This document shows, one piece after another, positions 4,537 to 58,538 of a stretch of DNA of 64,000 bases (its first letter is position 1; every line of letters begins with the position of its first letter). The stretch covers positions 922-64,921 of the forward strand of contig CAMZLB010000031.1 in assembly GCA_947311515.1 (NCBI GenBank). Direction: 5' to 3'. The stretch comes from Candidatus Moraniibacteriota bacterium. Its GTDB lineage: Bacteria > Patescibacteriota > Minisyncoccia > Moranbacterales > GCA-2747515. Under the pieces are notes generated by a model. That model had not been told where the DNA came from. It worked only from the letters and a program-made list of their open reading frames with translations, and ran no database searches. Position numbers and translations under genes: made by a program.

Positions 4537-5817
4537 TTACTTACTTTTTACATTAGCTATATCTTCAAATTTACTTTTCATAGTTGGATTTCCTCGTGTT
4601 ACTTTTTTTATAGTCAAGGTCTCCGCTTTAGCATTAGCAAGACGAAGATTATTTTCTGATGACCATAAAGCATCTTTTGTTTTTTGTAAATGATTTATAG
4701 TTTTATCTATTTCATCGATAGCTGTTTTGAATTTACGACTTGCTAGATCATAATTTTTTGCAAACCCTTCTTTAAATTTATTCATATTATCCTCAAAGTC
4801 ACTAATATCAATATTCTGATTTCTTACTAAAGCGAGTTCAACCTTGTATTTTAGCGAATTTAAGGCAGCATCACGAAGTATCGTAATGATTGGAATAAAA
4901 AACTGCGGTCTAATTACATACATTTTTGGGTACTTATAAGAAACATCAACTATACCGGAATTGTAAAGTTCACTTTCTATTTCCAATAGAGAAACAAGTA
5001 CTGCATATTCACATTTTTTATTTATTCTATCTTTATTGAGTTTTTGTAGAAAATCTTCATTTTTCTTCTTATTCAAAGTTTTTTCTTCTTCATTTTTCAT
5101 TTCAAACATTATAGAAATAATTTCATTTCCTGATTCATCAGTTTCACGATAAATATAGTCACCCTTATTTCCACCACTAACATCATTATCCTTTTCAAAA
5201 TAGGAATTTTGAAAAGCAGTCGCACGGAGCTTATTAAATTCAGTTTCACAGTGTTGTTCAAGTGTTTCACCGATCATTTTTGTAGAAAGCTTAAGTTTCA
5301 TGTCCTTACGAAGAGCAATTTCTTCATCTCTTGCTTTGATTATTTCATCTTTTGCTTTAATTTTTGCAAAAAACTTTTCCTCTATAGATTTCTCCAATAA
5401 TTTTTTCTCTATTTCTTTATTTCTTAATTCACTAATTAACTTATCTCGTTCTTTTTCTATTTTTATTGTAGCTTGTATTATATCAATTTTTTTTTCTGCA
5501 TTAACTTTATCAAGTTTTGAATTTAATTCAGAAATTTCAATATTTTTTCTTGTTATTTCTCCATTTAATTCATCTTTTAATTTAGAGTGTAGATTTGATA
5601 TTTCTAAATCTTTTTTTGCAATTTTTTCTTGTAACTTATTCTCAAGGTTAACTCTTAAGAGTTTAATTTCACTATCTTTCTCTTTTTCTATAGATTTTAA
5701 TCTATCATGAATTTCTTCACTAAATTGACTATCACGAACTTGTTTTACTATGCTAGCAAAGTCAGTTTCATCAATTTTGAAAAGCTTCTTACAATGTGGA
5801 CATTTTATATCTTTCAT
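4537..5817 (-). CDS. DUF2130-like protein: N-terminal CxxC zinc-ribbon, long coiled coil, conserved C-terminal domain
   Basis: [29 protein letters not shown] at the N-terminus. About 150 aa of K/E-rich heptads. C-terminal block ...[11 protein letters not shown]...[13 protein letters not shown]... recalled as DUF2130-type. Confidence 0.4.
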
Positions 5818-5929
5818 ACCTTTTTAGTTTAATTTAATTTATTATATCATAAATATTACTTTAAATTATATTCATAAAAAATTGAAAAATGAGTATTGCA
5901 TAATTCATGCTAAATAGACTTTAAAAACA

Positions 5930-6619
5930 TTATAAATGTTCTTTACTAATAATATTCCAAAGAATTGTATCTAAGTGTAATTCTGGGACATTTAATTTAA
6001 ATGAAATAGTTTTGTAAAAATCTTTAATATTTACTTTAGAATTTTTATTAAATTTTTTATATATTTTTATAAGTCTACTATCTATCGGAATCCCTAAAGA
6101 AGTTGGAAAAATTTCATTATAATTAAAAACATTTCTAGCGGAATAAGAAAACATTTTAACAGCAAAAACAATAGTTTTTGCATCTTTTTTTTGTTTCATT
6201 ACTTTTGATAGATCCAATGCAAAAATATCCATATTTTTATAGTAAAATTCGAATGCTTTATTATTTAACATAGAATAATTATCTATAAATTTATCTATTC
6301 TTTTAATTTTAATATTTACTAATCTTTTATTATTTTTAGAATTAGTTAAAAAAATAATCAAAACCTCTTTTACTTGCTGTAATGTATTCACATCCTTATC
6401 CTTTGTGTACTTATAAAATTCTTCCCAATAATCCTCACCATTTCCAGATAATTGATAACAAATAAGTGCATTTAAAATTACTAACTGAAAATATATTTTA
6501 TTTTTGAAGTTTTTTTCTTCGTATAATTTATTTACAGCTATAAATTGTCTATCAGATTTTTCAATTTTTAATATTTCGTTTAAAGAGTATTCTTTGAGAA
6601 TTTTATATAATTGTTCCAT
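5930..6619 (-). CDS. Possible AGOG-family N-glycosylase/DNA lyase-like protein (HhH)
   Basis: 229 aa, all-helical character. Candidate catalytic Lys (AVKMFSYSAR) about 27 aa before LGIPIDSRL (HhH-Asp-like). Assignment from memory, unverified. Confidence 0.3.
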   Translation of the reverse strand: MEQLYKILKEYSLNEILKIEKSDRQFIAVNKLYEEKNFKNKIYFQLVILNALICYQLSGNGEDYWEEFYKYTKDKDVNTLQQVKEVLIIFLTNSKNNKRLVNIKIKRIDKFIDNYSMLNNKAFEFYYKNMDIFALDLSKVMKQKKDAKTIVFAVKMFSYSARNVFNYNEIFPTSLGIPIDSRLIKIYKKFNKNSKVNIKDFYKTISFKLNVPELHLDTILWNIISKEHL

Positions 6620-9145: not shown

Positions 9146-9164
9146 ACTTTTATTATAACATAAC

Positions 9165-20380: not shown

Positions 20381-20462
20381 ACTATATATTATAGCATCTT
20401 TTAGATTTCAAAAAAACCTCCTAAAATATACTAAAAAGAAAAAGTTACATTGAGCTCATCTT

Positions 20463-42711: not shown

Positions 42712-43923
42712 CTATTCACTAACTGGTGACTTAATTCTACTATCTTCTCCACTCTCATTTTCCACATCTAAATCCCATCCAGTTAATTTTACAGCAAGTC
42801 TGACATTTTGACCCCGTTTTCCAATTGCAAGTGACAACTGATCATCTGGTACAATAACCTTAGCTCTCTTCATGTCTCTATCTAGTTCAACTGAGATTAC
42901 TTGCGCAGGAGATAATGCCGATGTTATAAATTCTTCCATGTTTGCATTCCATTCTATAATATCAATTTTTTCTCCACCAAGAGACTCTATAACAGCATTT
43001 ACTCTCACACCTTTTTGTCCAACGCATGAACCCACTGGATCTATGTCTTCGTCTTCTGTATAAACTGCTATTTTACTTCTTGAACCAGCCTCCCTAGAAA
43101 CTGCCTTAATTTCAACTGTTCCTGCAAATATTTCAGGAACCTCCATTTCAAATAAGCTCCTAACCATTTCTGCATGAGTTCTTGAAAGTTTAACTCCTGG
43201 TCCTCTTGAATCTATCTCTACAGCCTCTATATAAACTTTAATATATTGTCCTACATCATATCTTTCGCCTCGCACCTGGTCTCTAGGAAGTAATACCCCT
43301 ATAGATTTTCCAAGATCTATAAATACTGTTTTACCTTCTATTCTGTGAACTTTTCCATTTACAATTTGCCCCTCTTTCTCTTTGTTCTCATTATAAAGAA
43401 TTTCTCTTTCTGATTCACGAACTCTTTGAATTATAACTTGTTTTGCAGTTTGAGCTGCTACACGCCCAAAATCTGTATATGTTGGCAATGGTTCTTCTAT
43501 GCTATCACCTAATTCTATATTTTCGTCGCTCTTAAGTGCCTCACTTAATAAAATATCTCTTTCCTCATTAAATCTAGGCAGTTTAATTTCTTCTTTTTCC
43601 GAGTCTTCTGCTTCATTCTCATTTAAAAATTTTGAATCTTCACCTTCGATCTTATTCTCTTTATTATCCTCATCTGCTTCTGAATCAATAAATTCACGAG
43701 TTGTCTCATCTACCACTTCTTTTACAAGCCAAAATTTCATATCCCCATTAACACCAGTAAGTTCTGCACGTATATTTTGACCACGTTCCCCATATTCCTT
43801 TTTGTATGCTGCTGCAAGAGCTGCCTCCACAGTAAGAAGAAGACTTTCCTTATCAATACCCTTTTCTTCTGCAAGCGCATTTATTGCTCCAGTGAAATCT
43901 CCAAAAGAATTTTGTTCTTTCAT
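42712..43923 (-). CDS. nusA: Transcription termination/antitermination factor NusA (with acidic insertion)
   Basis: N-terminal NusA domain, S1, two KH (GQKGVRVNAVIESLGG, GKRGQNVRLAVKLTGW). About 70-aa D/E-rich insert at residues about 70-140. Confidence 0.9.
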   Translation of the reverse strand: MKEQNSFGDFTGAINALAEEKGIDKESLLLTVEAALAAAYKKEYGERGQNIRAELTGVNGDMKFWLVKEVVDETTREFIDSEADEDNKENKIEGEDSKFLNENEAEDSEKEEIKLPRFNEERDILLSEALKSDENIELGDSIEEPLPTYTDFGRVAAQTAKQVIIQRVRESEREILYNENKEKEGQIVNGKVHRIEGKTVFIDLGKSIGVLLPRDQVRGERYDVGQYIKVYIEAVEIDSRGPGVKLSRTHAEMVRSLFEMEVPEIFAGTVEIKAVSREAGSRSKIAVYTEDEDIDPVGSCVGQKGVRVNAVIESLGGEKIDIIEWNANMEEFITSALSPAQVISVELDRDMKRAKVIVPDDQLSLAIGKRGQNVRLAVKLTGWDLDVENESGEDSRIKSPVSE

Positions 43924-44294
43924 ATTTTTTTTAAAATCTAATTAATTTCTATAATATTTTATACTACTTATCTCTTAATGTGTTTCAAGAAAAATCAATA
44001 TAGGGTAAAAAAAATGAGAGTTCTTTCGAATCCCTCCTACCCTTATTATTATTATAACAAAAATCTATACTATGTCAATAAAATACAAAAGAATATCTAA
44101 TAATATAGATAGCCATAATAATTTAGAGTCTGGGAACTTTAGACACAAATTTGCATGTAGTCTTATATTGATTCTTGATTCATTTACATCTATTAACGCT
44201 GTTATTATTACTTTATTTTAATCTAATAAAAAATCCAGTTATTGCAAGTGTAATTCCTGTAATTATAAATACATTGTTTTAGTTTTTATAATTT

Positions 44295-45227: not shown

Positions 45228-45449
45228 TGACTTCTTTTATGATTATTTTGCTATTGTTCATTTCAAAACAAATTTCACCAATTTAATTAACTCATTTTTG
45301 CTAATTTTATTTGTCAGCATTTACCACGTTATTTACATTTCTTCCAAATAAAAAAATAATTGTTCTAAATAGTATTCCCATCTATTCCTTTATGTGACTT
45401 AACTGTATTATAGTAATTTACAAATCCTATCAATTCTTTTTTTATGATA

Positions 45450-46390
45450 TCTATTTTTAAATTCAGTTTTGTTATATCACATTTACATTAAAGTTTTAAT
45501 CATTCTTTCTGTCTTTCCATTAGTCCATGAATGTTTAATTTTATAAATCTTTGCTCAATATTATTACTTCTACATTTTAACATAAAAGCATATTTCTCAC
45601 TATTTTCTTTGTCTTTCGACATCTAGATTATCAAAATGAGTTAGTAAAAGTTCAAAGTTACACTGAAGTGTCCTAATTAATTTTTGTAATTTCTTGTATT
45701 GTTGATGTTCCTCAGTGTACTTCAATTTATCTAAACTTGAAATAGCTTCTTGTTTTATTTTAGAAAAAAAGAATTTTCTCAGTAAGGTTTTTAATTATTT
45801 TACTCTTAGTCCTTACAGAAGGAATTATTTGTCTAGCTCTAGAATATTTATGAAATACACATAACTGTACCTTTGGAAAAACTTATCTAAGACTTTTAGT
45901 GATCCCATATATCCATCACAGTGAAAATCTTTATGGTACTAGGTAAATCTCACTAAGAACTGATTTTATGAGATTTGAGTATAACTCAGAGCTTTCTTCG
46001 AGAAATACTTTTCAATTGATAATATCTAATGTTTTAATATCAAATAATATCAGAAAAACAATATCCTTATCTCTGTATTTTAACCAAGTTCCATCTAGGG
46101 CATAGTAACCTAACCTAATTGAATTTAGCCATTTAGTAATTTCAAATTGCTCAGGAATTCTTTCGATGTATTGTTCAAAATATTTTATTAAAACTTTTTT
46201 TAGTAAGACACTTTTATTAAACCAACTACTAAATATTTTATAAACACTATTTAAATAAAGCGATTGTAAATATATCCCTAATTTACCCTAAGAATAACCT
46301 AAAATCAATGTTTTGAAACTACTAATTGATTACCAGTGTCTAAAATTTAGACAACTAGCACGATCTCCTTGTTTGCCCCATACAAAATTA
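45450..46390 (-). mobile_element. Degraded IS256-family (mutator-type) transposase remnant, multiple frameshifts/stops
   Basis: Minus-strand fragments in different frames: YALDGTWLKYRDKD (first D region), FHCDGYMGSLKVL (second D), VFPKVQLCVFHKYSRA (compare the IS256-family motif Q-R-C-x-x-H-x-x-R-N). No ORF above 60 aa. Confidence 0.5.
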
Positions 46391-47277
46391 TTAATAAATT
46401 TTAATAAGCTTTGCTCGATAATATAGACGTTTTAATGAAGTATATTTTGGTGTGCAAGTATATAAAGTTAGTATTGGTTCATCAGTTTTTTTAAGAATTT
46501 CTTCAACTCCTTTATCATTTGGTTTAACCACTCCACTTTCAACAATTTCATACTCAAAAACATGCTGATCATAATGTACTTTTACTTTGTCACTTTTTTT
46601 AATTTGTCTAAATCAATAAAAGCTGTTCTAGCCGGATTATTTCCAAATTTCCAGCGATGTCCTGATATTACTAAATTTCCTTTTTCGCCCAGCATAGCCA
46701 TAGTTTTATGTCGGCCCAGACCTCTGTCCAAATCACTATCTTGAATTCCATTAACAATTGGAGCTTTTATTTTTACTTTCTCTGTATTCACTTCCAACCA
46801 AAATGTCCCCAAATCAGCTTCAGTAAACTCTTTTTTCTTTTCTTTTTTTTGATTATCACTTCCCTTATCATTTTTAACTTCCACTACTACCTCCTGGCTA
46901 TCAACATCTTTTCTCTCATCTACAGCAACATTTCTTTCTCCAAAAAACCACATCCAAAATAAAATATAGCCAACAACAAAAACTAGTAATATAATCCATT
47001 TTTTGTGTTTGAAAGTAATCACTTTAAGCCATTTTAAAATAGCCTTTAGACGACTAATAATCTTATCACTGAATTTATTTTTCTGCCAAATTTTCTTAAT
47101 TTTATCAATCCAAATTTTGCACCAAGGTTTAATTTTTTGTATCAACAAAACATATTTTTTCCGAGAAAAATTATAAATTTTAACCAATCTTTTTTTAATA
47201 CTAGTAATATTCTTACTTACAAATTTCCACACCATTTGTATATATTTTTTTACTATATTAAAAATTTTATTAGACAT
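46391..47277 (-). pseudogene. Sortase-family transpeptidase, split by frameshift at poly-A7 tract
   Basis: N-terminal TM. ...APIVNGIQDSDLDRGLGRH...GNLVISGHRWKF... ends at 46582. Downstream, shifted by -1: DKVKVHYDQHVFEYEIVESGVVKPND...ILTLYTCTPKY (TLxTC catalytic Cys) to stop at 46391. Adding one A to the A7 run at 46594-46600 fuses both parts. Confidence 0.65.
46594..46600 (-). repeat. Poly-A(7) homopolymer (T7 on plus) at the sortase frameshift site
   Basis: cacTTTTTTTaatttg on plus strand. Confidence 0.6.
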
Positions 47278-47635: not shown

Positions 47636-50600
47636 CTAAAATATTTCAGAGCTTTTAACAATCTCCCAAATAGTTTTCCACCAATTCTCTCCAGTTTTAG
47701 CTAGTTTCTCTTCAGTATTGTTATAACCAAAGTCTGCTTTAGTATAATCCTGTCCTTCTCTTAAAGTCAATTTAATTTTATTGTTTAAATTACCACCTTT
47801 TTCATAGGTTTCTATAAAATGTCTCACATCATGTTTTTTTACAATAACTTTAAACTTACCTTTTGGAAGAATATCAAATTTATATTTACCATACTTATCG
47901 GTCTTTGTTTTCCAAATGTAATCATCATCAGTGCCAAATTTATTGTCTGGCCCAACCCAAATCAATTTAACATGAATATCTTCTAATCCTTTCTCATCTT
48001 TATCTTGTTTACCATCTCCGTCTTTGTCCAACCAAATGTAATTTCCGATGGAACTATCTCTCTCAGCTTTTTCTGTTCTATTCCATACTGTCTGATCTTC
48101 CCCGTTGATAGTATCATTATCCGTTACTACTGGTTCTTGTCCTCCAGTAATATCATCACTAAAATCTCCATCACCATTAGCATCCCAATGAGCACTAGCT
48201 TGATTTTCTACAGTTTTCATTTCAGCAGGAACAGTTGTCCTGTAAACCAAAACAACTTCATTTAAAGAATCATCTTCATTAGTCCCTCTTGGATCTGGAG
48301 CGATATCTCCTTCCCACCTCACCCTATTTTCCGCCACATCGTAGGTACAAACTGAAGTTACAGAAGCACCTCTTGCCTCACAAGTAAAACTATTTGCTAC
48401 GTAGGTCGTTCCAGCTGGAACATCATCGAGAATTTGTGTAGCAATAGCCGTCATATTTCCGTCGTTAATCCAAACCATTGTCCATTCTATTTCATTCTCT
48501 CCAGTTTCTCCAACAGTTTTTATAGCATGGGGTGGATCAAAAACATTAGCGTAAAGAGCATAAAATCCAGCATCTATAGATGTATTATTTTCTCCAGAAT
48601 GCAAATGTACAACATCCGTTGTTAATGTATTAATATTGATATCACTATCTTTTGTTGTGTCTCCACCTTGATTTTTATCAGTTGGATTATGATCTGCTGG
48701 TGGTGTAAATTGCACTTGATAATCGCCTGGCAAAAGATTTTCAAAAAGATAATCTCCATTTGAGCCAGTAGTTATAGTATAGGGTGTCCCAGGATTAGCT
48801 GGATCGTCAACTGGATTTCCTGCTCCATCCAATAATTCTACTAAAATACCTTCTAAGCCTGGTTCCCAATCTTGTTGAATACCATCCCTTTGATCATCTC
48901 GCCAAACTTTATCGCCAAGAGAAACCTGCTGCGATATACCTGCATCCAAAGAAGTTACTATGTCTCCAGAAGCCAATGTTACAACATCACTTCGCTTAGT
49001 CACAACATCTATATCAGAATCTATAGTGTCATCGCCTCCGACATTCTGTATTGAAACGCTATATCCATTTGGCAAATTTAATTCTATTTGATATTGCCCT
49101 GGCATTAAATGGATAAACTCATATTCACCATTGACTCCAGTGACTACCGTGTAAGGAGTGCCTGGATTATTTGGATTGTCCACTGGATTACCATCTCCGT
49201 CTAAAAGTTTTACTACTACTCCCTCTGCACCATTTTCTCCTGCATCCTGCAAACCATTAAGATTATCATCTAGCCAAATTTTATCTCCGATAGTAACTGT
49301 TTCATACATCCCCGTATCAATCGTATTATTATCCTCATTGACTTCCAAGCTAATAGTATCCGTCGTACCTACCTGTCCATTAATATTTGTTACATCTGAA
49401 TCAACAGCATCATCACCTCCTTGATTAGCTGGAGAATAAGAATGATTTGCTGAGGCAGTAAACCTTACACGATAATCTCCATGATTTAAACCTTCAAATA
49501 AATACCATCCATTAACATCTGTTGTTACTACATATGGTTGTCCATTTACTGGATTGTTCACAGGATTTCCTGCTCCATCTAATAATTCAACTTGCACTCC
49601 TTCCAATCCATTCTCGCCAGCATCCTGAATACCGTTAGCATTACTATCTGTCCATACTCTATTACCAATAGAACTGCCCACAATGCTAACCGCTTCTGAA
49701 TTAGACAATACGGGTAGAGTAACTCCTGTAGCCGAAGCACCTGCTGAATTAGAATAAATATCTCCGGACAAATTATTTTCTATTTTCATTTTCAATTGCA
49801 ATTGACACGTAGCGTCTGCCTCCATAGATGGACCTACTGCTCTCACAGCTGTTACATCACTTCGATTCATTCCAGATGGAGGATCAGTCATAGTTCCTTC
49901 TTGCCAAATTGTTTGTGCGCCACCAATAACGTTAGCTAGACCAACACTTGGCGCAATATTAATGTTAGTTGGCATCTCCGTTGTGTAATAGTATTTAACA
50001 CCCCCATTTACAGAAATATCACATAAAGCTGGTGATTCTGGATGGGCGACTAAAGACATAGAAGTAAATTCTTCAGTACCATGATAATTAGTTCCAGGAT
50101 TTCGTTCCACGGTAATATTATTAAAATGTATCGCCCCTGTATTTCCATCTCCTGTAAAAGGTAGAATATCAATCACATCTAAATCTGTTAAATCTCCTGG
50201 TTTTCCATTTCTAAAATCAACTAAATAATCAATGTCCTGACTAGCTACCGTACGTTCTCTTTGAGTAGCGCCCACTGTTGATTTAATAATATTTAAACTA
50301 GCTGGCACTGAGATATTTATTCCTACTTCTGATTGCGCTTGACTTACCACAGTAAAATCAGTTGAAACTTCTATAGTTGTAACATTATTAGCAATACCCA
50401 CCGGTGCTGAAGCTTTTACTTTTGCTTCATAAACAATATCTGAAAAATTACCGTTAGCACCTACTACCCCAAAATCCCATAACAAAACTGTATTTACGTT
50501 ATCATCACAGGTAAGTGAAACATCAACATCGTTACAAGTACCAATAACCGGCTCATTGGCTCCTGTTGTACTTCCATCAATATATTCAAATCCTTCCGGT

Positions 50601-51817
50601 AAAACATCTTTAATGACCAAATGCCCACTTTCAGCAAGACCAGCATCATTTGTATAAGTATAAGCTAAAGTATAAGAGACTGTATCACTAGGCACAGCTG
50701 TGGAGGTTGAAGCTGTCTTATTTATACGCGCTTTTGCCCCTGTAAATGTCACTCTATCTCCTCTTGTACCAATTATGGCATCTGGATATTGATTAGGAAT
50801 ATAATTTGTCCCAATAAAAGCATTGTTATTTATTTTATAAGCAAAACAATTAACAATTTCATCTCCATACTGTAGTGGTTGCCCGGTTAATAAATCATTT
50901 GTGCGCACCTTATGATTTAGCCACATAAATAAATAAGCTCCTGGCGGATGAACTACCCCATTGCGAAGTTTAATTTTTATTTTTGTCACCGAACCAATCC
51001 CTTGAGAGTCTGCTCTAGCCTCATCAGCTGTTGCAAACCACCCCCCTATTCCATTACATTCATTTTCAATTTCAGTTTTATATGAAACTGTTTGATCTCC
51101 ACCTCGTGAAGGAAGCCAAGAATTATCTACATAACGAGCCGAATATTCAAATTCATAAGGACCGGGGCTGGCACTATCGCTATAGTCACCGGAATCATGA
51201 CCTATATAATATTTTACTGGATCTGCATTGTTGTTATGAGCATAACCATTATAGCTTGTCTGTATACCAGTATAAAATTGATTGTCTTCAATATCTTGAA
51301 TTTCTAATCGATAAGCATCAATAACATCGCACATCTCCTCTGTAAAATCAGTTCCTCCTGTATTAGTAGAACGTATATTTGTAGAAAATTCATAACCACT
51401 ATTAACCATTCCTTCTCCCGTTCGAACACCCATAGCCCCTCCTGGCCAACTCCAAACACTCGAAGTGTCACCACGATAATATTTACCGAAAGATCCTCGT
51501 AAACCATACAAGGTTAGAGAATAGTCATTATCATTTTCTGATTCATGATTAGCTCCAAAATTTGAATTACCCGTTGGTGTAGTTGGGTCAAAACTTCTTA
51601 ATTTATTTTTTGTTAGCAATACTCCATCATCACTGTTTCCCGTAACACCATAATTTCCTGCTTCAACATCCGAAAGAGGTACAAAAACATTTACCGAACC
51701 AATAGCCGCTATTGCCCTACTGGCTGGCAAATCTCCTCCTGTATACATTTTTGTTGGATAATTATTTAAAGTAGCATCCACATGCGAAACTGTTACACCA
51801 ACATCAGTTCCGCTCAC
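47636..51817 (-). CDS. Giant cell-surface protein, C-terminal 1393-aa segment. Contains a DUF11-like domain, 3.5 SdrD-B/Cna-B-type repeats and a C-terminal LAKTG motif.
   Basis: Tandem about 120-aa units starting GNRVWTDSNANGIQDAGENG..., GDKIWLDDNLNGLQDAGENG..., GDKVWRDDQRDGIQ.... Partial fourth unit GNYIWLDKDGDGKQD. ...EEKLAKTGENWWKTIWEIVKSSEIF end. ORF begins at GTG directly after an in-frame TAA. Confidence 0.7.
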   Translation of the reverse strand: MSGTDVGVTVSHVDATLNNYPTKMYTGGDLPASRAIAAIGSVNVFVPLSDVEAGNYGVTGNSDDGVLLTKNKLRSFDPTTPTGNSNFGANHESENDNDYSLTLYGLRGSFGKYYRGDTSSVWSWPGGAMGVRTGEGMVNSGYEFSTNIRSTNTGGTDFTEEMCDVIDAYRLEIQDIEDNQFYTGIQTSYNGYAHNNNADPVKYYIGHDSGDYSDSASPGPYEFEYSARYVDNSWLPSRGGDQTVSYKTEIENECNGIGGWFATADEARADSQGIGSVTKIKIKLRNGVVHPPGAYLFMWLNHKVRTNDLLTGQPLQYGDEIVNCFAYKINNNAFIGTNYIPNQYPDAIIGTRGDRVTFTGAKARINKTASTSTAVPSDTVSYTLAYTYTNDAGLAESGHLVIKDVLPEGFEYIDGSTTGANEPVIGTCNDVDVSLTCDDNVNTVLLWDFGVVGANGNFSDIVYEAKVKASAPVGIANNVTTIEVSTDFTVVSQAQSEVGINISVPASLNIIKSTVGATQRERTVASQDIDYLVDFRNGKPGDLTDLDVIDILPFTGDGNTGAIHFNNITVERNPGTNYHGTEEFTSMSLVAHPESPALCDISVNGGVKYYYTTEMPTNINIAPSVGLANVIGGAQTIWQEGTMTDPPSGMNRSDVTAVRAVGPSMEADATCQLQLKMKIENNLSGDIYSNSAGASATGVTLPVLSNSEAVSIVGSSIGNRVWTDSNANGIQDAGENGLEGVQVELLDGAGNPVNNPVNGQPYVVTTDVNGWYLFEGLNHGDYRVRFTASANHSYSPANQGGDDAVDSDVTNINGQVGTTDTISLEVNEDNNTIDTGMYETVTIGDKIWLDDNLNGLQDAGENGAEGVVVKLLDGDGNPVDNPNNPGTPYTVVTGVNGEYEFIHLMPGQYQIELNLPNGYSVSIQNVGGDDTIDSDIDVVTKRSDVVTLASGDIVTSLDAGISQQVSLGDKVWRDDQRDGIQQDWEPGLEGILVELLDGAGNPVDDPANPGTPYTITTGSNGDYLFENLLPGDYQVQFTPPADHNPTDKNQGGDTTKDSDININTLTTDVVHLHSGENNTSIDAGFYALYANVFDPPHAIKTVGETGENEIEWTMVWINDGNMTAIATQILDDVPAGTTYVANSFTCEARGASVTSVCTYDVAENRVRWEGDIAPDPRGTNEDDSLNEVVLVYRTTVPAEMKTVENQASAHWDANGDGDFSDDITGGQEPVVTDNDTINGEDQTVWNRTEKAERDSSIGNYIWLDKDGDGKQDKDEKGLEDIHVKLIWVGPDNKFGTDDDYIWKTKTDKYGKYKFDILPKGKFKVIVKKHDVRHFIETYEKGGNLNNKIKLTLREGQDYTKADFGYNNTEEKLAKTGENWWKTIWEIVKSSEIF
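48840..49690 (-). repeat. Tandem about 360-bp coding repeats (SdrD-B-like domains) inside the giant surface protein
   Basis: Three successive units identifiable at DNA and protein level (about 49690, 49330, 48965). Units diverged, not identical. Confidence 0.6.
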
Positions 51818-51832
51818 ACTACAATTTACCTT

Positions 51833-52534
51833 TTAAACTCCCTGATTTTGTGGTATATGCTGGTCTGTGTTAGCTTCATGAATTGAACCTGGTCCACTAA
51901 AAGTTATAGGGTTAGCGCTACCAACATAGCCATCTTGCACGTCATAACGACCATTCATATCGCATCTAACCAACTGCGCATTAGGAGAAATTTCATCCAA
52001 CTGATCTGTAAAAGTAAAGGTGACATCATTTCCCATGGATTCATTCCCCAATAAAGAATAAGTGTTATCCGTTGTACCAACTACCTCATCAGTTTTAATA
52101 TAAAAAATATAATTTAATATATAACCATCAACTTCAGGAGTATTAGGATCCCCATCATCATCATAAGTCATTCCCGTATAAGATCTATACAAACCTTTTT
52201 GCAAATTCCATCGGGGTGACGCTGTAACTGTCAAAGAATATCCATCCGTATCATCAGAAACGGTTGTAGCATTTTGCCCAGAAACTTCAAAAGAAATATC
52301 TCCAGGAGTTGCTCCATTTGGAGTACCCCCCAACACTCTTGCTGTAAATAATAAATCCTCAGCATAAGTAGCTGTATTAGTAAAATTATTTCTAACACAA
52401 GTGAGGGTTAATTTGTCCTGAGAAATACTTGATTGATTTGAATCACAAGAACCTGGTAAATTTGTCCATTCATATTCCCCCGTGGCTGGCAAGGTTCCAA
52501 CTATAGCAACCTCTTCCTCTGGACCATTTTGCAC
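51833..52534 (-). CDS. Middle segment (233 aa) of the same giant surface protein
   Basis: Same frame as 47636..51817, separated only by TAA at 51833-51835 (...QNQGV*KVNCSVSGTDVG...). T/S/G/N/D-rich beta-type composition. Confidence 0.55.
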   Translation of the reverse strand: MQNGPEEEVAIVGTLPATGEYEWTNLPGSCDSNQSSISQDKLTLTCVRNNFTNTATYAEDLLFTARVLGGTPNGATPGDISFEVSGQNATTVSDDTDGYSLTVTASPRWNLQKGLYRSYTGMTYDDDGDPNTPEVDGYILNYIFYIKTDEVVGTTDNTYSLLGNESMGNDVTFTFTDQLDEISPNAQLVRCDMNGRYDVQDGYVGSANPITFSGPGSIHEANTDQHIPQNQGV

Positions 52535-52875
52535 ACCATTCCAACTCCAACCAGCTGATACCTCAAATACATCTTCGTCCTCACTATCAAATCACCACTA
52601 TAGGTATCATCACTGGGATCACTAGTGGTTCCATTGTTAGAATATCCTGGGTCATTAGCAAAATCACAACCGTCCGTTGGGTCAGCTGGACAAATATTAA
52701 CATCATTAACTAAATCGCCAACATTATTTAAAGGTCCTTTTATCCCGCCAGTCTGAGTGTATTTAGTTGTTATATTTAAACTAGCTGCGAAAGCATTATC
52801 TAGTGAGTACACAAAAACCCCACTAATGATAATAGTCATTATCAACAACTTACCTAAAATATTTTTCATTTTCAT
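52501..52875 (-). CDS. N-terminal segment (signal peptide plus first 100 aa) of the giant surface protein
   Basis: MKMKNILGKLLIMTIIISGVFVYSLDNAFA signal peptide. Reading continues in the -1 frame at about 52585-52595 (...DDTYSGD | FDSEDEDVFEVSAGWSWNG...) into the 233-aa ORF. Confidence 0.55.
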   Translation of the reverse strand: MKMKNILGKLLIMTIIISGVFVYSLDNAFAASLNITTKYTQTGGIKGPLNNVGDLVNDVNICPADPTDGCDFANDPGYSNNGTTSDPSDDTYSGDLIVRTKMYLRYQLVGVGMVCKMVQRKRLL

Positions 52876-52910
52876 TTTTTATATTGTTATTATTTTTCTA
52901 AGATATTTAT

Positions 52911-52941
52911 ATTATACCACCCCCCCCTTTAGCTATAGCAA
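52911..52941 (-). promoter_or_regulatory. Candidate promoter of giant surface protein gene: TTGCTA-19 nt-TATAAT with G8 homopolymer inside spacer
   Basis: Minus-strand read: TTGCTAtagctaaaGGGGGGGGtggTATAATataaatatcttagaaaaataataacaatataaaaaATG. C8 on plus at 52920-52927. Confidence 0.45.
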
Positions 52942-53079
52942 GTTATCATAAGGCGAATATCTGCTTTTTATTCAGATTATAACACTTACTAAGTAGTCAG
53001 CTTTACAATACAGACCTGATTAATCAAAAAAGATTTTTTGGATATACCATCATATTCTCCAAAGCTTAATCCTACAGAT

Positions 53080-53514
53080 TTATTTAATTTTTTCAATGTC
53101 TACAATAAGTGTTGTTTCTGGTAAATATCTGATTATTAATTTAGAATCTTTGCTATAAAATTGACTTATTAATCTATCTACATAACTATTTCCATTTTCA
53201 CAAATTAAACTTTTTCGTGCAAAGAAAAACCAAGTTGCTTTTTTTTGAAAATGTATTTCAGATAAAACACAAGTATTTTTCTTAATATATTGTTCCTTCT
53301 TAGATAAATAACCAATAGTATCTAAAAATAATGACTTCTGAGGAATTAACCAAATAAGTAGCACTGTAATTGCAAATCCCCTTACTACATTATCTATAAT
53401 AGCTGTTCTTATGCCATATTTAGTAATAAAACTTGGATTTATAATTACTGTTACGAGTATAAGAATCCCAACTGCAGCAATTAACCAATTTTTAATTAAA
53501 ATATAAGTTATCAT
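53080..53514 (-). CDS. Membrane protein, possibly bacterial PH-domain (YdbS/DUF304-like)
   Basis: Two N-terminal TM helices then about 90-aa soluble domain. Weak assignment. Confidence 0.25.
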   Translation of the reverse strand: MITYILIKNWLIAAVGILILVTVIINPSFITKYGIRTAIIDNVVRGFAITVLLIWLIPQKSLFLDTIGYLSKKEQYIKKNTCVLSEIHFQKKATWFFFARKSLICENGNSYVDRLISQFYSKDSKLIIRYLPETTLIVDIEKIK

Positions 53515-56919: not shown

Positions 56920-57683
56920 CCAACTTCTTCGTCCCTAAGCGTTAAAATTTCATATCCATCTTCTGTTATTAAAATAGTATGCTCCCACTGAGCACTAAGC
57001 GACATATCTTTAGTTACAACAGTCCAATTATCTTCCAATACTAAAGTCTCTTTTTTTCCTGCATTTATCATTGGCTCTATAGTAAAAATCATACCTTTTT
57101 TTATAACTTCACCAGTATTAATTTTTCCATAGTGCAACACCATTGGAGGCTCATGGAATGCTTTTCCGATTCCATGTCCACAATAATCCCTAACGATAGA
57201 GTATTTATTTGACTCTGCATATTGTTGTATTACATATCCGATATCTCCTAATTGTATACCTGGCTTTAGAATTTTAATACCTTCATACATTGCAATTTGT
57301 GATGCGCTGCATATTTTTTTACTCTCTAAACTTGCATTTCCCACTATAAACATTTTACTAGTATCTCCATGATAACCATCTTTTTTTACTGTTATATCAA
57401 TATTCAAAATATCACCATCTTCGAGAATTCTACTATCTGGTATACCATGACAAACCACATTATTTACAGAAGTGCATATTGATTTTGGAAAACCCTTATA
57501 ATTAAGAGGTGCTGGAATTGCTTTTTGTTCCTTACAGATAAAATCATGGCATATTTTATCAAGTTCTTTTGTAGAAATTCCTACTTTTACAAAAGGCTCT
57601 ATCATGACTAAAACTTGAGACGCTAATTTTCCCACGATTCTCATTTTTTTTATTTGATCTTCTGTTTTTATAATTATGGACAT
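56901..57683 (-). CDS. map: Methionine aminopeptidase type I
   Basis: GHGIGKAFHEPP, FTIEPMI, metal-ligand D/D/H/E/E pattern. 260 aa. Confidence 0.9.
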   Translation of the reverse strand: MSIIIKTEDQIKKMRIVGKLASQVLVMIEPFVKVGISTKELDKICHDFICKEQKAIPAPLNYKGFPKSICTSVNNVVCHGIPDSRILEDGDILNIDITVKKDGYHGDTSKMFIVGNASLESKKICSASQIAMYEGIKILKPGIQLGDIGYVIQQYAESNKYSIVRDYCGHGIGKAFHEPPMVLHYGKINTGEVIKKGMIFTIEPMINAGKKETLVLEDNWTVVTKDMSLSAQWEHTILITEDGYEILTLRDEEVGWEEII

Positions 57684-58456: not shown

Positions 58457-58538
58457 ATTACTTAATTATTTTTATTTACTACCCTTTATTATATACTAAT
58501 TTTCTAGATTTACCAAGAAATGTGCTATAATATAGATT

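Follow-up and report, generated by a model that had tools for sequence, protein, structure and literature searches.

A G8 tract of variable length beside a putative extended -10 promoter in an apparently decaying adhesin-sortase locus of a CPR bacterium

The stretch of DNA analysed here, hereafter the window, spans 64 kb of the genome of a CPR bacterium (Candidatus Moraniibacteriota) and has a GC content of 29.1%. On its minus strand, an intergenic region of 204 nt, bounded by the stop codon of an upstream ORF, carries a candidate promoter with a run of eight G residues. Downstream lie three consecutive ORFs of 124, 233 and 1393 aa that together make up an adhesin gene, and then the two parts of a sortase gene. 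The features of the locus, in the direction of transcription, are as follows.

53080-53514, minus strand: upstream neighbour, an ORF of 144 aa with no assigned function
52976-52984, minus strand: distal extended -10 element, TGTTATAAT (TGTTATGAT in sister strain L014)
52936-52941, minus strand: TTGCTA, putative -35 element with a 4/6 match to TTGACA (TTGGTA in L014)
52928-52930, minus strand: A3 run abutting the G tract on its 5' side (A4 in L008, a contig with no other difference)
52920-52927, minus strand: G8 homopolymer (G9 in sister strain L014)
52911-52919, minus strand: proximal extended -10 element, TGGTATAAT, conserved in 5/5 assemblies
52501-52875, minus strand: adhesin fragment 1, 124 aa, with the signal peptide and a conserved N-terminal region
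51833-52534, minus strand: adhesin fragment 2, 233 aa, terminated by an in-frame TAA codon (51835-51833)
47636-51817, minus strand: adhesin fragment 3, 1393 aa, with DUF11, four SdrD_B repeats, SpaA-like domains and a C-terminal LAKTG motif
46582-47277, minus strand: N-terminal part of a sortase, 231 aa, class-E-like, with the His region, adjoining the adhesin
46391-46531, minus strand: C-terminal sortase fragment, 46 aa, with the catalytic TLYTC motif, in a different frame

The adhesin begins with a signal peptide (the N-terminus reads MKMKNILGKLLIMTIIISGVFVYSLDNAFA) and continues through an uncharacterised region of about 700 aa that precedes DUF11. Pfam identifies four SdrD_B repeats (E = 1e-98), SpaA and DUF11, and LAKTG lies 17 aa from the end of the protein. 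In plan the protein is like the staphylococcal Sdr/MSCRAMM adhesins, which also combine a signal peptide, SdrD_B repeats, DUF11 and SpaA-like Ig folds with an LPXTG-like motif near the C-terminus and an adjacent sortase. However, the common ground is confined to the B-repeat domains, and the scores fall far under the NCBIfam cut-offs for SdrC and SdrD. Unlike Sdr proteins, the window adhesin has an N-terminal 700 aa from an uncharacterised family with further members in Sulfurovum-like contigs; the tail that follows LAKTG (ENWWKTIWEIVKSSEIF) is short and weakly hydrophobic; and the gene is disrupted.

We recovered the locus in four other assemblies by exact-protein and cluster look-ups. In the Logan assembly of ERR4221282 (L006/L009, 18 kb) there is one mismatch in 17.7 kb, at window position 57515, and the Logan contig of ERR4221283 (L007, 3.9 kb) is identical to the window. 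A contig of NCBI assembly GCA_947313875.1 (L008, 1.3 kb) is 100% identical over 1310 nt save for one extra A. The fourth assembly, GCA_947313845.1, was found by cluster look-up and represents a sister strain (L014, 1.9 kb) with about 95% DNA identity; positions 1-1876 of this contig correspond to window 53159-52162 joined to 48412-47531. A literature search on the sample accessions returned nothing.

These assemblies, together with more distant homologues, define two lesions in the window copy of the adhesin gene. A 1-nt deletion between 52574 and 52573 shifts the frame after 'LIVRT'; L014 reads ACGAATGATG there and the window ACGAAGATG, and homologues carry an uninterrupted YSGDLIVRTNDxF…W(N/S)WNG. 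At the position of the in-frame TAA that ends the second fragment, homologues have Q, K, E or T. Homologues with 43-53% identity span the rebuilt N-terminus continuously, across both lesions, and both lesions are reproduced in the Logan assemblies. The sister strain is free of the window frameshift and has lesions of its own, namely a nonsense mutation at codon 148 (TAA for CAA) and a deletion of 3.75 kb, in frame, between the imperfect 13-nt repeats GGAATGACTTATG and GGAACGACCTACG. The adhesin gene is thus a pseudogene, with separate inactivating events in two lineages. We considered and rejected two ways in which the breaks might be only apparent. An alternative genetic code is at odds with the other ORFs of the window, which are long and uninterrupted under table 11, and a programmed frameshift is at odds with the deletion site, which has no slippery heptamer and is undeleted in the sister strain.

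The sortase gene is broken in a similar way. Its frameshift falls within an A7 run at 46594-46600, where the plus strand reads T7; it is also present in the Logan assembly and would be repaired by A8. The adhesin-sortase module as a whole is therefore degraded. Beyond the sortase remnant, about 1.2 kb of DNA (45230-46390; GC 18-28%) contains no ORF of at least 100 aa, the longest that lies largely inside it being 49 aa, and is flanked on the other side by a 310-aa ORF of unassigned function. Both Logan contigs stop within this segment, at window position 46298.

The closest relatives of the N-terminal 700 aa of the adhesin (proteins P0001-P0004; loci L010-L013 and L015) are 43-59% identical to it. 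Several of them are interrupted as well in their assemblies: L010 has an in-frame TAA after residue 880 (2851-2865), the L012 homologue has a 1-nt frameshift at about 5190-5410, and the L011 homologue is truncated (5979-6062). Counting the window and L014, there are three independent in-frame TAA stops in the family. The homologue contigs share a different gene order, with genes of ~620 aa and ~310 aa upstream, and have AAGGA ribosome-binding sites. A cassette shared between these loci and the window was rejected since the 310-aa ORF of the window is unrelated. One of the homologue contigs is annotated Sulfurovum, so the family spans CPR and Campylobacterota, although codon usage in the window copy is native (GC3 0.20). 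The G tract does not mark the edge of a horizontally acquired island, given that this GC3 of the adhesin equals the genome norm (0.18 ± 0.03); the higher GC of the gene (37-40%) is due to codon positions 1 and 2.

The intergenic region upstream of the adhesin was singled out in a preliminary description of this DNA, which placed a G8 homopolymer in the spacer of a near-consensus promoter and proposed that slipped-strand changes in its length switch expression of the surface protein. Its coordinates and arithmetic are correct when the minus strand is read directly. The order on that strand is GATAAC, TTGCTA, TAGCTAAAGGGGGGGGTGG, TATAAT, ATAAATATCTTAGAAAAATAATAACAATATAAAAA and ATG. A spacer of 19 nt (52935-52917; TAGCT AAA GGGGGGGG TGG) separates TTGCTA (52941-52936) from TATAAT (52916-52911), the G8 run occupies 52927-52920 (C8 on the plus strand), and the adhesin ATG at 52875 is 35 nt downstream of TATAAT. 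The claim that this is the only long G/C homopolymer was also borne out, for the C8 is the single G/C run of at least 7 in 64 kb; just two C6 runs occur in the window (51041-51046 and 52326-52331), both within the adhesin gene. The tract does separate a -35-like hexamer from a perfect -10 hexamer, ahead of a gene for a protein with a signal peptide and SdrD_B, DUF11 and SpaA domains and with a sortase next to it. The adhesin gene itself is not intact, having a frameshift and a nonsense codon here and separate breaks in the sister strain.

Two elements had been overlooked. The dinucleotide TG at 52919-52918 turns the -10 hexamer into an extended -10 element, TGGTATAAT, and a second extended -10 element, TGTTATAAT, lies 65 nt upstream of the first. 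We consider the proximal TGGTATAAT most likely to be the core of the promoter, and the match of TTGCTA to a -35 element is probably coincidental. In L014 the hexamer at the -35 position is TTGGTA and the distal element is TGTTATGAT; TGGTATAAT is retained. The 5' leader of L014 also carries a 10-nt tandem duplication (AAAAATAATA). An 8-bp palindrome, GCTATAGC (52931-52938, minus strand), overlaps the putative -35 element and the spacer. In the sister strain it is disrupted (GGTATAGC) and hence unlikely to be a conserved operator.

Other identities for the tract and its surroundings were tried and set aside. The 221-nt intergenic RNA folds no better than shuffled sequences (z = -0.75), a terminator scan returned nothing in the promoter region, and no inverted repeat pairs with the G tract, all of which speaks against a terminator or hairpin. 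As for known RNA elements, Rfam reports three tRNAs over the window and nothing else. The end of a repeat or mobile element was rejected too, no repeat family being present.

How the tract might act depends on how promoters are built in this genome. The motif TGNTATAAT occurs 21 times in the window against 10.3 expected, a count reached in 1 of 100 shuffles. Eleven of the 21 copies are intergenic, though intergenic DNA makes up 20% of the window, and 8 of these copies precede a gene start on the same strand by 7-130 nt. Enriched, intergenic and gene-oriented, TGNTATAAT behaves as a promoter signal. Only one of ten intergenic TGnTATAAT sites has a -35 hexamer that scores at least 4/6 at a distance of 16-18 nt; the other nine score at most 3/6. 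The one site with a recognisable -35 hexamer (at 44059; promoter 44051-44078, minus strand) is a near-perfect TTGACA-16-TATAAT with a TG extension. Promoters in the window, predicted like their start sites from consensus, would therefore be of the extended -10 type and largely independent of a -35 element. Since nine of the ten intergenic TGnTATAAT sites do without a -35 hexamer, spacer length is unlikely to gate transcription, and with such a grammar a switch based on spacer length loses its mechanistic core.

The number of chance occurrences expected also bears on the tract. A G8 or C8 run is expected 0.13 times per window and is present in 9 of 100 dinucleotide shuffles, and the arrangement TTGNNA-19-TATAAT has four copies in the window against 1.33 expected, the other three being intragenic. 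The statistical weight of the tract against chance is modest. Our consensus promoter scan omits the site because it accepts spacers of 16-18 nt only and the spacer here is 19 nt.

Comparison across assemblies, as the preliminary description had proposed, reveals that the tract varies in length. The window, L006/L009 and L007 carry the allele AGCT-A3-G8-TGG, L008 carries A4-G8 with its extra A at the tract boundary, and L014 carries A3-G9; these alleles are read from consensus contigs and represent two lineages, several of the same-strain assemblies may share reads, and the L008 and L014 contigs are short enough for error to be possible. Over the roughly 22.9 kb compared within the strain, nothing differs apart from the SNP at 57515 and the indel at the tract boundary. 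Between the window and L014, the tract holds one of the four gap openings in the alignment; in the intergenic part of that alignment, 14 positions are substituted, and there are two further indels, of 4 nt and 10 nt, each within an A/T-rich run. No allele has a spacer of 16-18 nt, all of them measuring 19-20 nt, so that the 17-nt optimum predicted to follow from the loss of two G residues has no counterpart among the observed alleles.

The tract is specific to this species rather than a feature of the adhesin family. At five homologue loci (L010-L013 and L015), the DNA ahead of the gene is AT-rich and has no G/C run of at least 6. An exact-flank DNA search of JGI metagenomes, in which the gap at the tract was left variable, gave 0 hits, and a protein-guided metagenome scan gave one homologue, 59% identical, without the tract upstream. 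In a GTDB genome scan with the pyruvate kinase gene located 0.7 kb upstream, the nearest genomes (Candidatus Moraniibacteriota MAGs with 75% and 57% identity) lack the locus downstream. These matches place the window in a CPR genome of the Parcubacteria group.

Could the tract nevertheless operate a phase-variable promoter, in which slippage reversibly alters the distance between -35 and -10 elements so that the adhesin is expressed at a low level with G8 or G9 and at a high level with G6 or G7? Several features are what such a switch would look like. The tract is placed precisely between a hexamer that contains TTG and a perfect -10, ahead of the gene for a secreted SdrD_B/DUF11 protein; it is the sole G/C run of at least 7 in 64 kb; and its length varies among close relatives. 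The layout is like that of the opc promoter tract of Neisseria (PMC6389960) and of the intergenic G/C tracts of Campylobacter (PMC8355987). However, the spacer measures 19-20 nt in all three alleles, and an 'ON' length is not among them. The -35 hexamer is a 4/6 match that is not conserved in L014, predicted promoters in this genome are extended -10 elements that lack a -35 hexamer, and TTGNNA-19-TATAAT is expected more than once per window by chance. Homologues lack the tract. With two adhesin lesions here, two others in the sister strain and a broken sortase, a switch would control nothing. Thus, of the proposal in the preliminary description, the position of the tract and its variation between strains hold, and a functional, alternating -35 spacing and an intact target gene do not. 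We regard a switch in operation as highly doubtful.

In Neisseria meningitidis, porA has a poly-G tract in the spacer between its -35 and -10 elements. The opc promoter of the same species has a poly-C tract (PMC6389960). As at our locus, a G/C homopolymer lies between -35-like and -10 hexamers ahead of a surface-protein gene, and length changes of one base shift the spacing. The Neisseria porA and opc systems differ in that the -35 element is functional, tract lengths cycle through the optimal spacings and the genes are intact, whereas here the spacer is always 19-20 nt, the -35 is doubtful, the -10 is extended and the gene is dead. Another parallel is nspA, where a homopolymer directly upstream of the -10 also differs by one base between related strains. 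The alleles behaved as fixed strain differences for which phase variation was undetectable in the assay used (PMC6389960). In contrast to the present locus, nspA is a functional gene, and an effect of 5A versus 6A on its expression has been demonstrated.

The behaviour of long G runs in an AT-rich genome is documented for Campylobacter jejuni, a mismatch-repair-deficient species in which G8 tracts are hypermutable, with 1e-4 to 1e-3 changes per division and a bias towards insertion (PMC8355987). C. jejuni is like the present genome in its AT-rich composition (about 30% GC), the rarity of its G/C runs of at least 8 and the surface structures that these affect, and its insertion bias would fit a change from G8 to G9 here. 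Unlike the window, with one tract in 64 kb of a CPR genome, Campylobacter has dozens of tracts per genome, mostly inside ORFs, and a documented deficiency in mismatch repair.

The alleles might also have a trivial origin: a G run that arose by chance, ordinary divergence between G8 and G9, and an A4G8 allele produced by a mistake in assembling or sequencing a short contig of low coverage. Illumina reads are prone to error near G runs, and the L008 and L014 contigs are 1.3 and 1.9 kb long. A G8 or C8 run is present in 9 of 100 shuffles, and the intergenic alignment with L014 has 14 substitutions and further indels of 4 nt and 10 nt. Against this, the tract boundary is where the sole indel of the same-strain comparisons (about 22.9 kb) lies, one of the four gap openings in the sister-strain alignment falls inside the tract, and G/C runs of at least 8 are known hot spots of slippage (PMC8355987). 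Chance and error together make, in our judgement, a distinctly unlikely account.

A further possibility is historical. The tract may have tuned an intact ancestral adhesin until the promoter drifted, or was driven by selection, to a long spacer and low expression, after which the module, no longer needed, decayed. The tract and the proximal extended -10 element are kept in both lineages, and the lesions arose independently after the split; since the coding lesions postdate the split and the tract is common to both lineages, the ancestor would have had an intact gene together with the tract. Both G alleles are above the optimal length, which is consistent with the reported insertion bias of G8 tracts. 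However, there is no sign that a -35 element ever mattered in this genome, and conservation says little, because at 5% divergence eight G residues would be kept by chance with a probability of about 0.66 (0.95^8). Moreover, look-ups in JGI, cluster and metagenome data found no relative that combines an intact gene with a shorter tract. We hold a relic of this kind to be unlikely.

The reading that we favour, with confidence a little above even, is that a slippage-prone G8 run lies beside a -35-independent promoter of a decaying adhesin-sortase module, and that changes in its length are now neutral and no switch is in operation. The G8 run would abut the extended -10 element TGGTATAAT ahead of what was probably a gene for a giant, sortase-dependent surface protein. 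Both the G run and the adjoining A run appear to drift in length among very close relatives (A3G8, A4G8, A3G9), with slippage as the presumed origin of the polymorphism. The TGGTATAAT promoter probably still fires without a -35 element. We infer both this use of the promoter and the absence of a present regulatory consequence. Three considerations weigh against an expression switch: transcription would rely on TGnTATAAT and not on a correctly spaced -35 element, all alleles keep the weak TTGCTA 19-20 nt away and hence beyond range, and the adhesin and sortase are pseudogenes. Some room for an effect is left, even so. The tract adjoins the TG and could modulate the extended -10 promoter by shifting the upstream DNA, high-frequency variation within the population could be what the A4G8 allele reflects, its contig being identical in all other respects, and cells outside the sample may carry intact adhesin alleles.

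Attachment to host cells is the presumed way of life of CPR bacteria, and variation of their surfaces is almost undescribed. A far-reaching interpretation of the locus would make it the first contingency locus in CPR/Patescibacteria, tuning a giant sortase-anchored adhesin, perhaps for host attachment, with different tract alleles in co-occurring strains and with repeated adhesin inactivation as a mark of strong, fluctuating selection on attachment; we think this quite improbable. If it were a true switch, the contingency-locus strategy of host-adapted pathogens would extend to an ultra-small environmental symbiont, and there would be a simple sequence marker to seek in thousands of MAGs. Our literature search found no report of slipped-strand phase variation in CPR bacteria, the nearest CPR case being that of a hypervariable repeat gene from a Gracilibacterium (PMC6851277). 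If confirmed, such a locus would be a novelty for CPR, though the type of mechanism is already well known. The more solid result is the repeated and independent loss of the adhesin-sortase module, through a frameshift, nonsense codons, a deletion and a frameshift in an A run of the sortase gene, and the G tract is one more unstable site within this decaying locus.

The promoter survey yielded some further observations. The near-perfect promoter at 44051-44078 lies 128 nt upstream of nusA (42712-43923), and after it come a G-rich segment and a T8 run (GGGTAGGAGGGATTCGAAAGAACTCTCATTTTTTTTACCC). The nusA leader has no Rfam match, and the segment upstream of nusA could be a leader or attenuator. 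TGnTATAAT boxes occur 6-8 nt before start codons at 58523-58531 (plus strand), 20388-20396 (minus strand) and 9152-9160 (minus strand), and a further box (5841-5849, minus strand) lies 24 nt before a start codon. The spacing of 6-8 nt from the ATG implies that the corresponding transcripts would be leaderless mRNAs. A Shine-Dalgarno-like motif precedes about 9/49 genes; its absence before the adhesin is thus normal here, and we rejected the idea that the annotated adhesin start is false for that reason. Extended -10 promoters, often leaderless and poor in Shine-Dalgarno motifs, should be useful signals for annotating CPR genomes.
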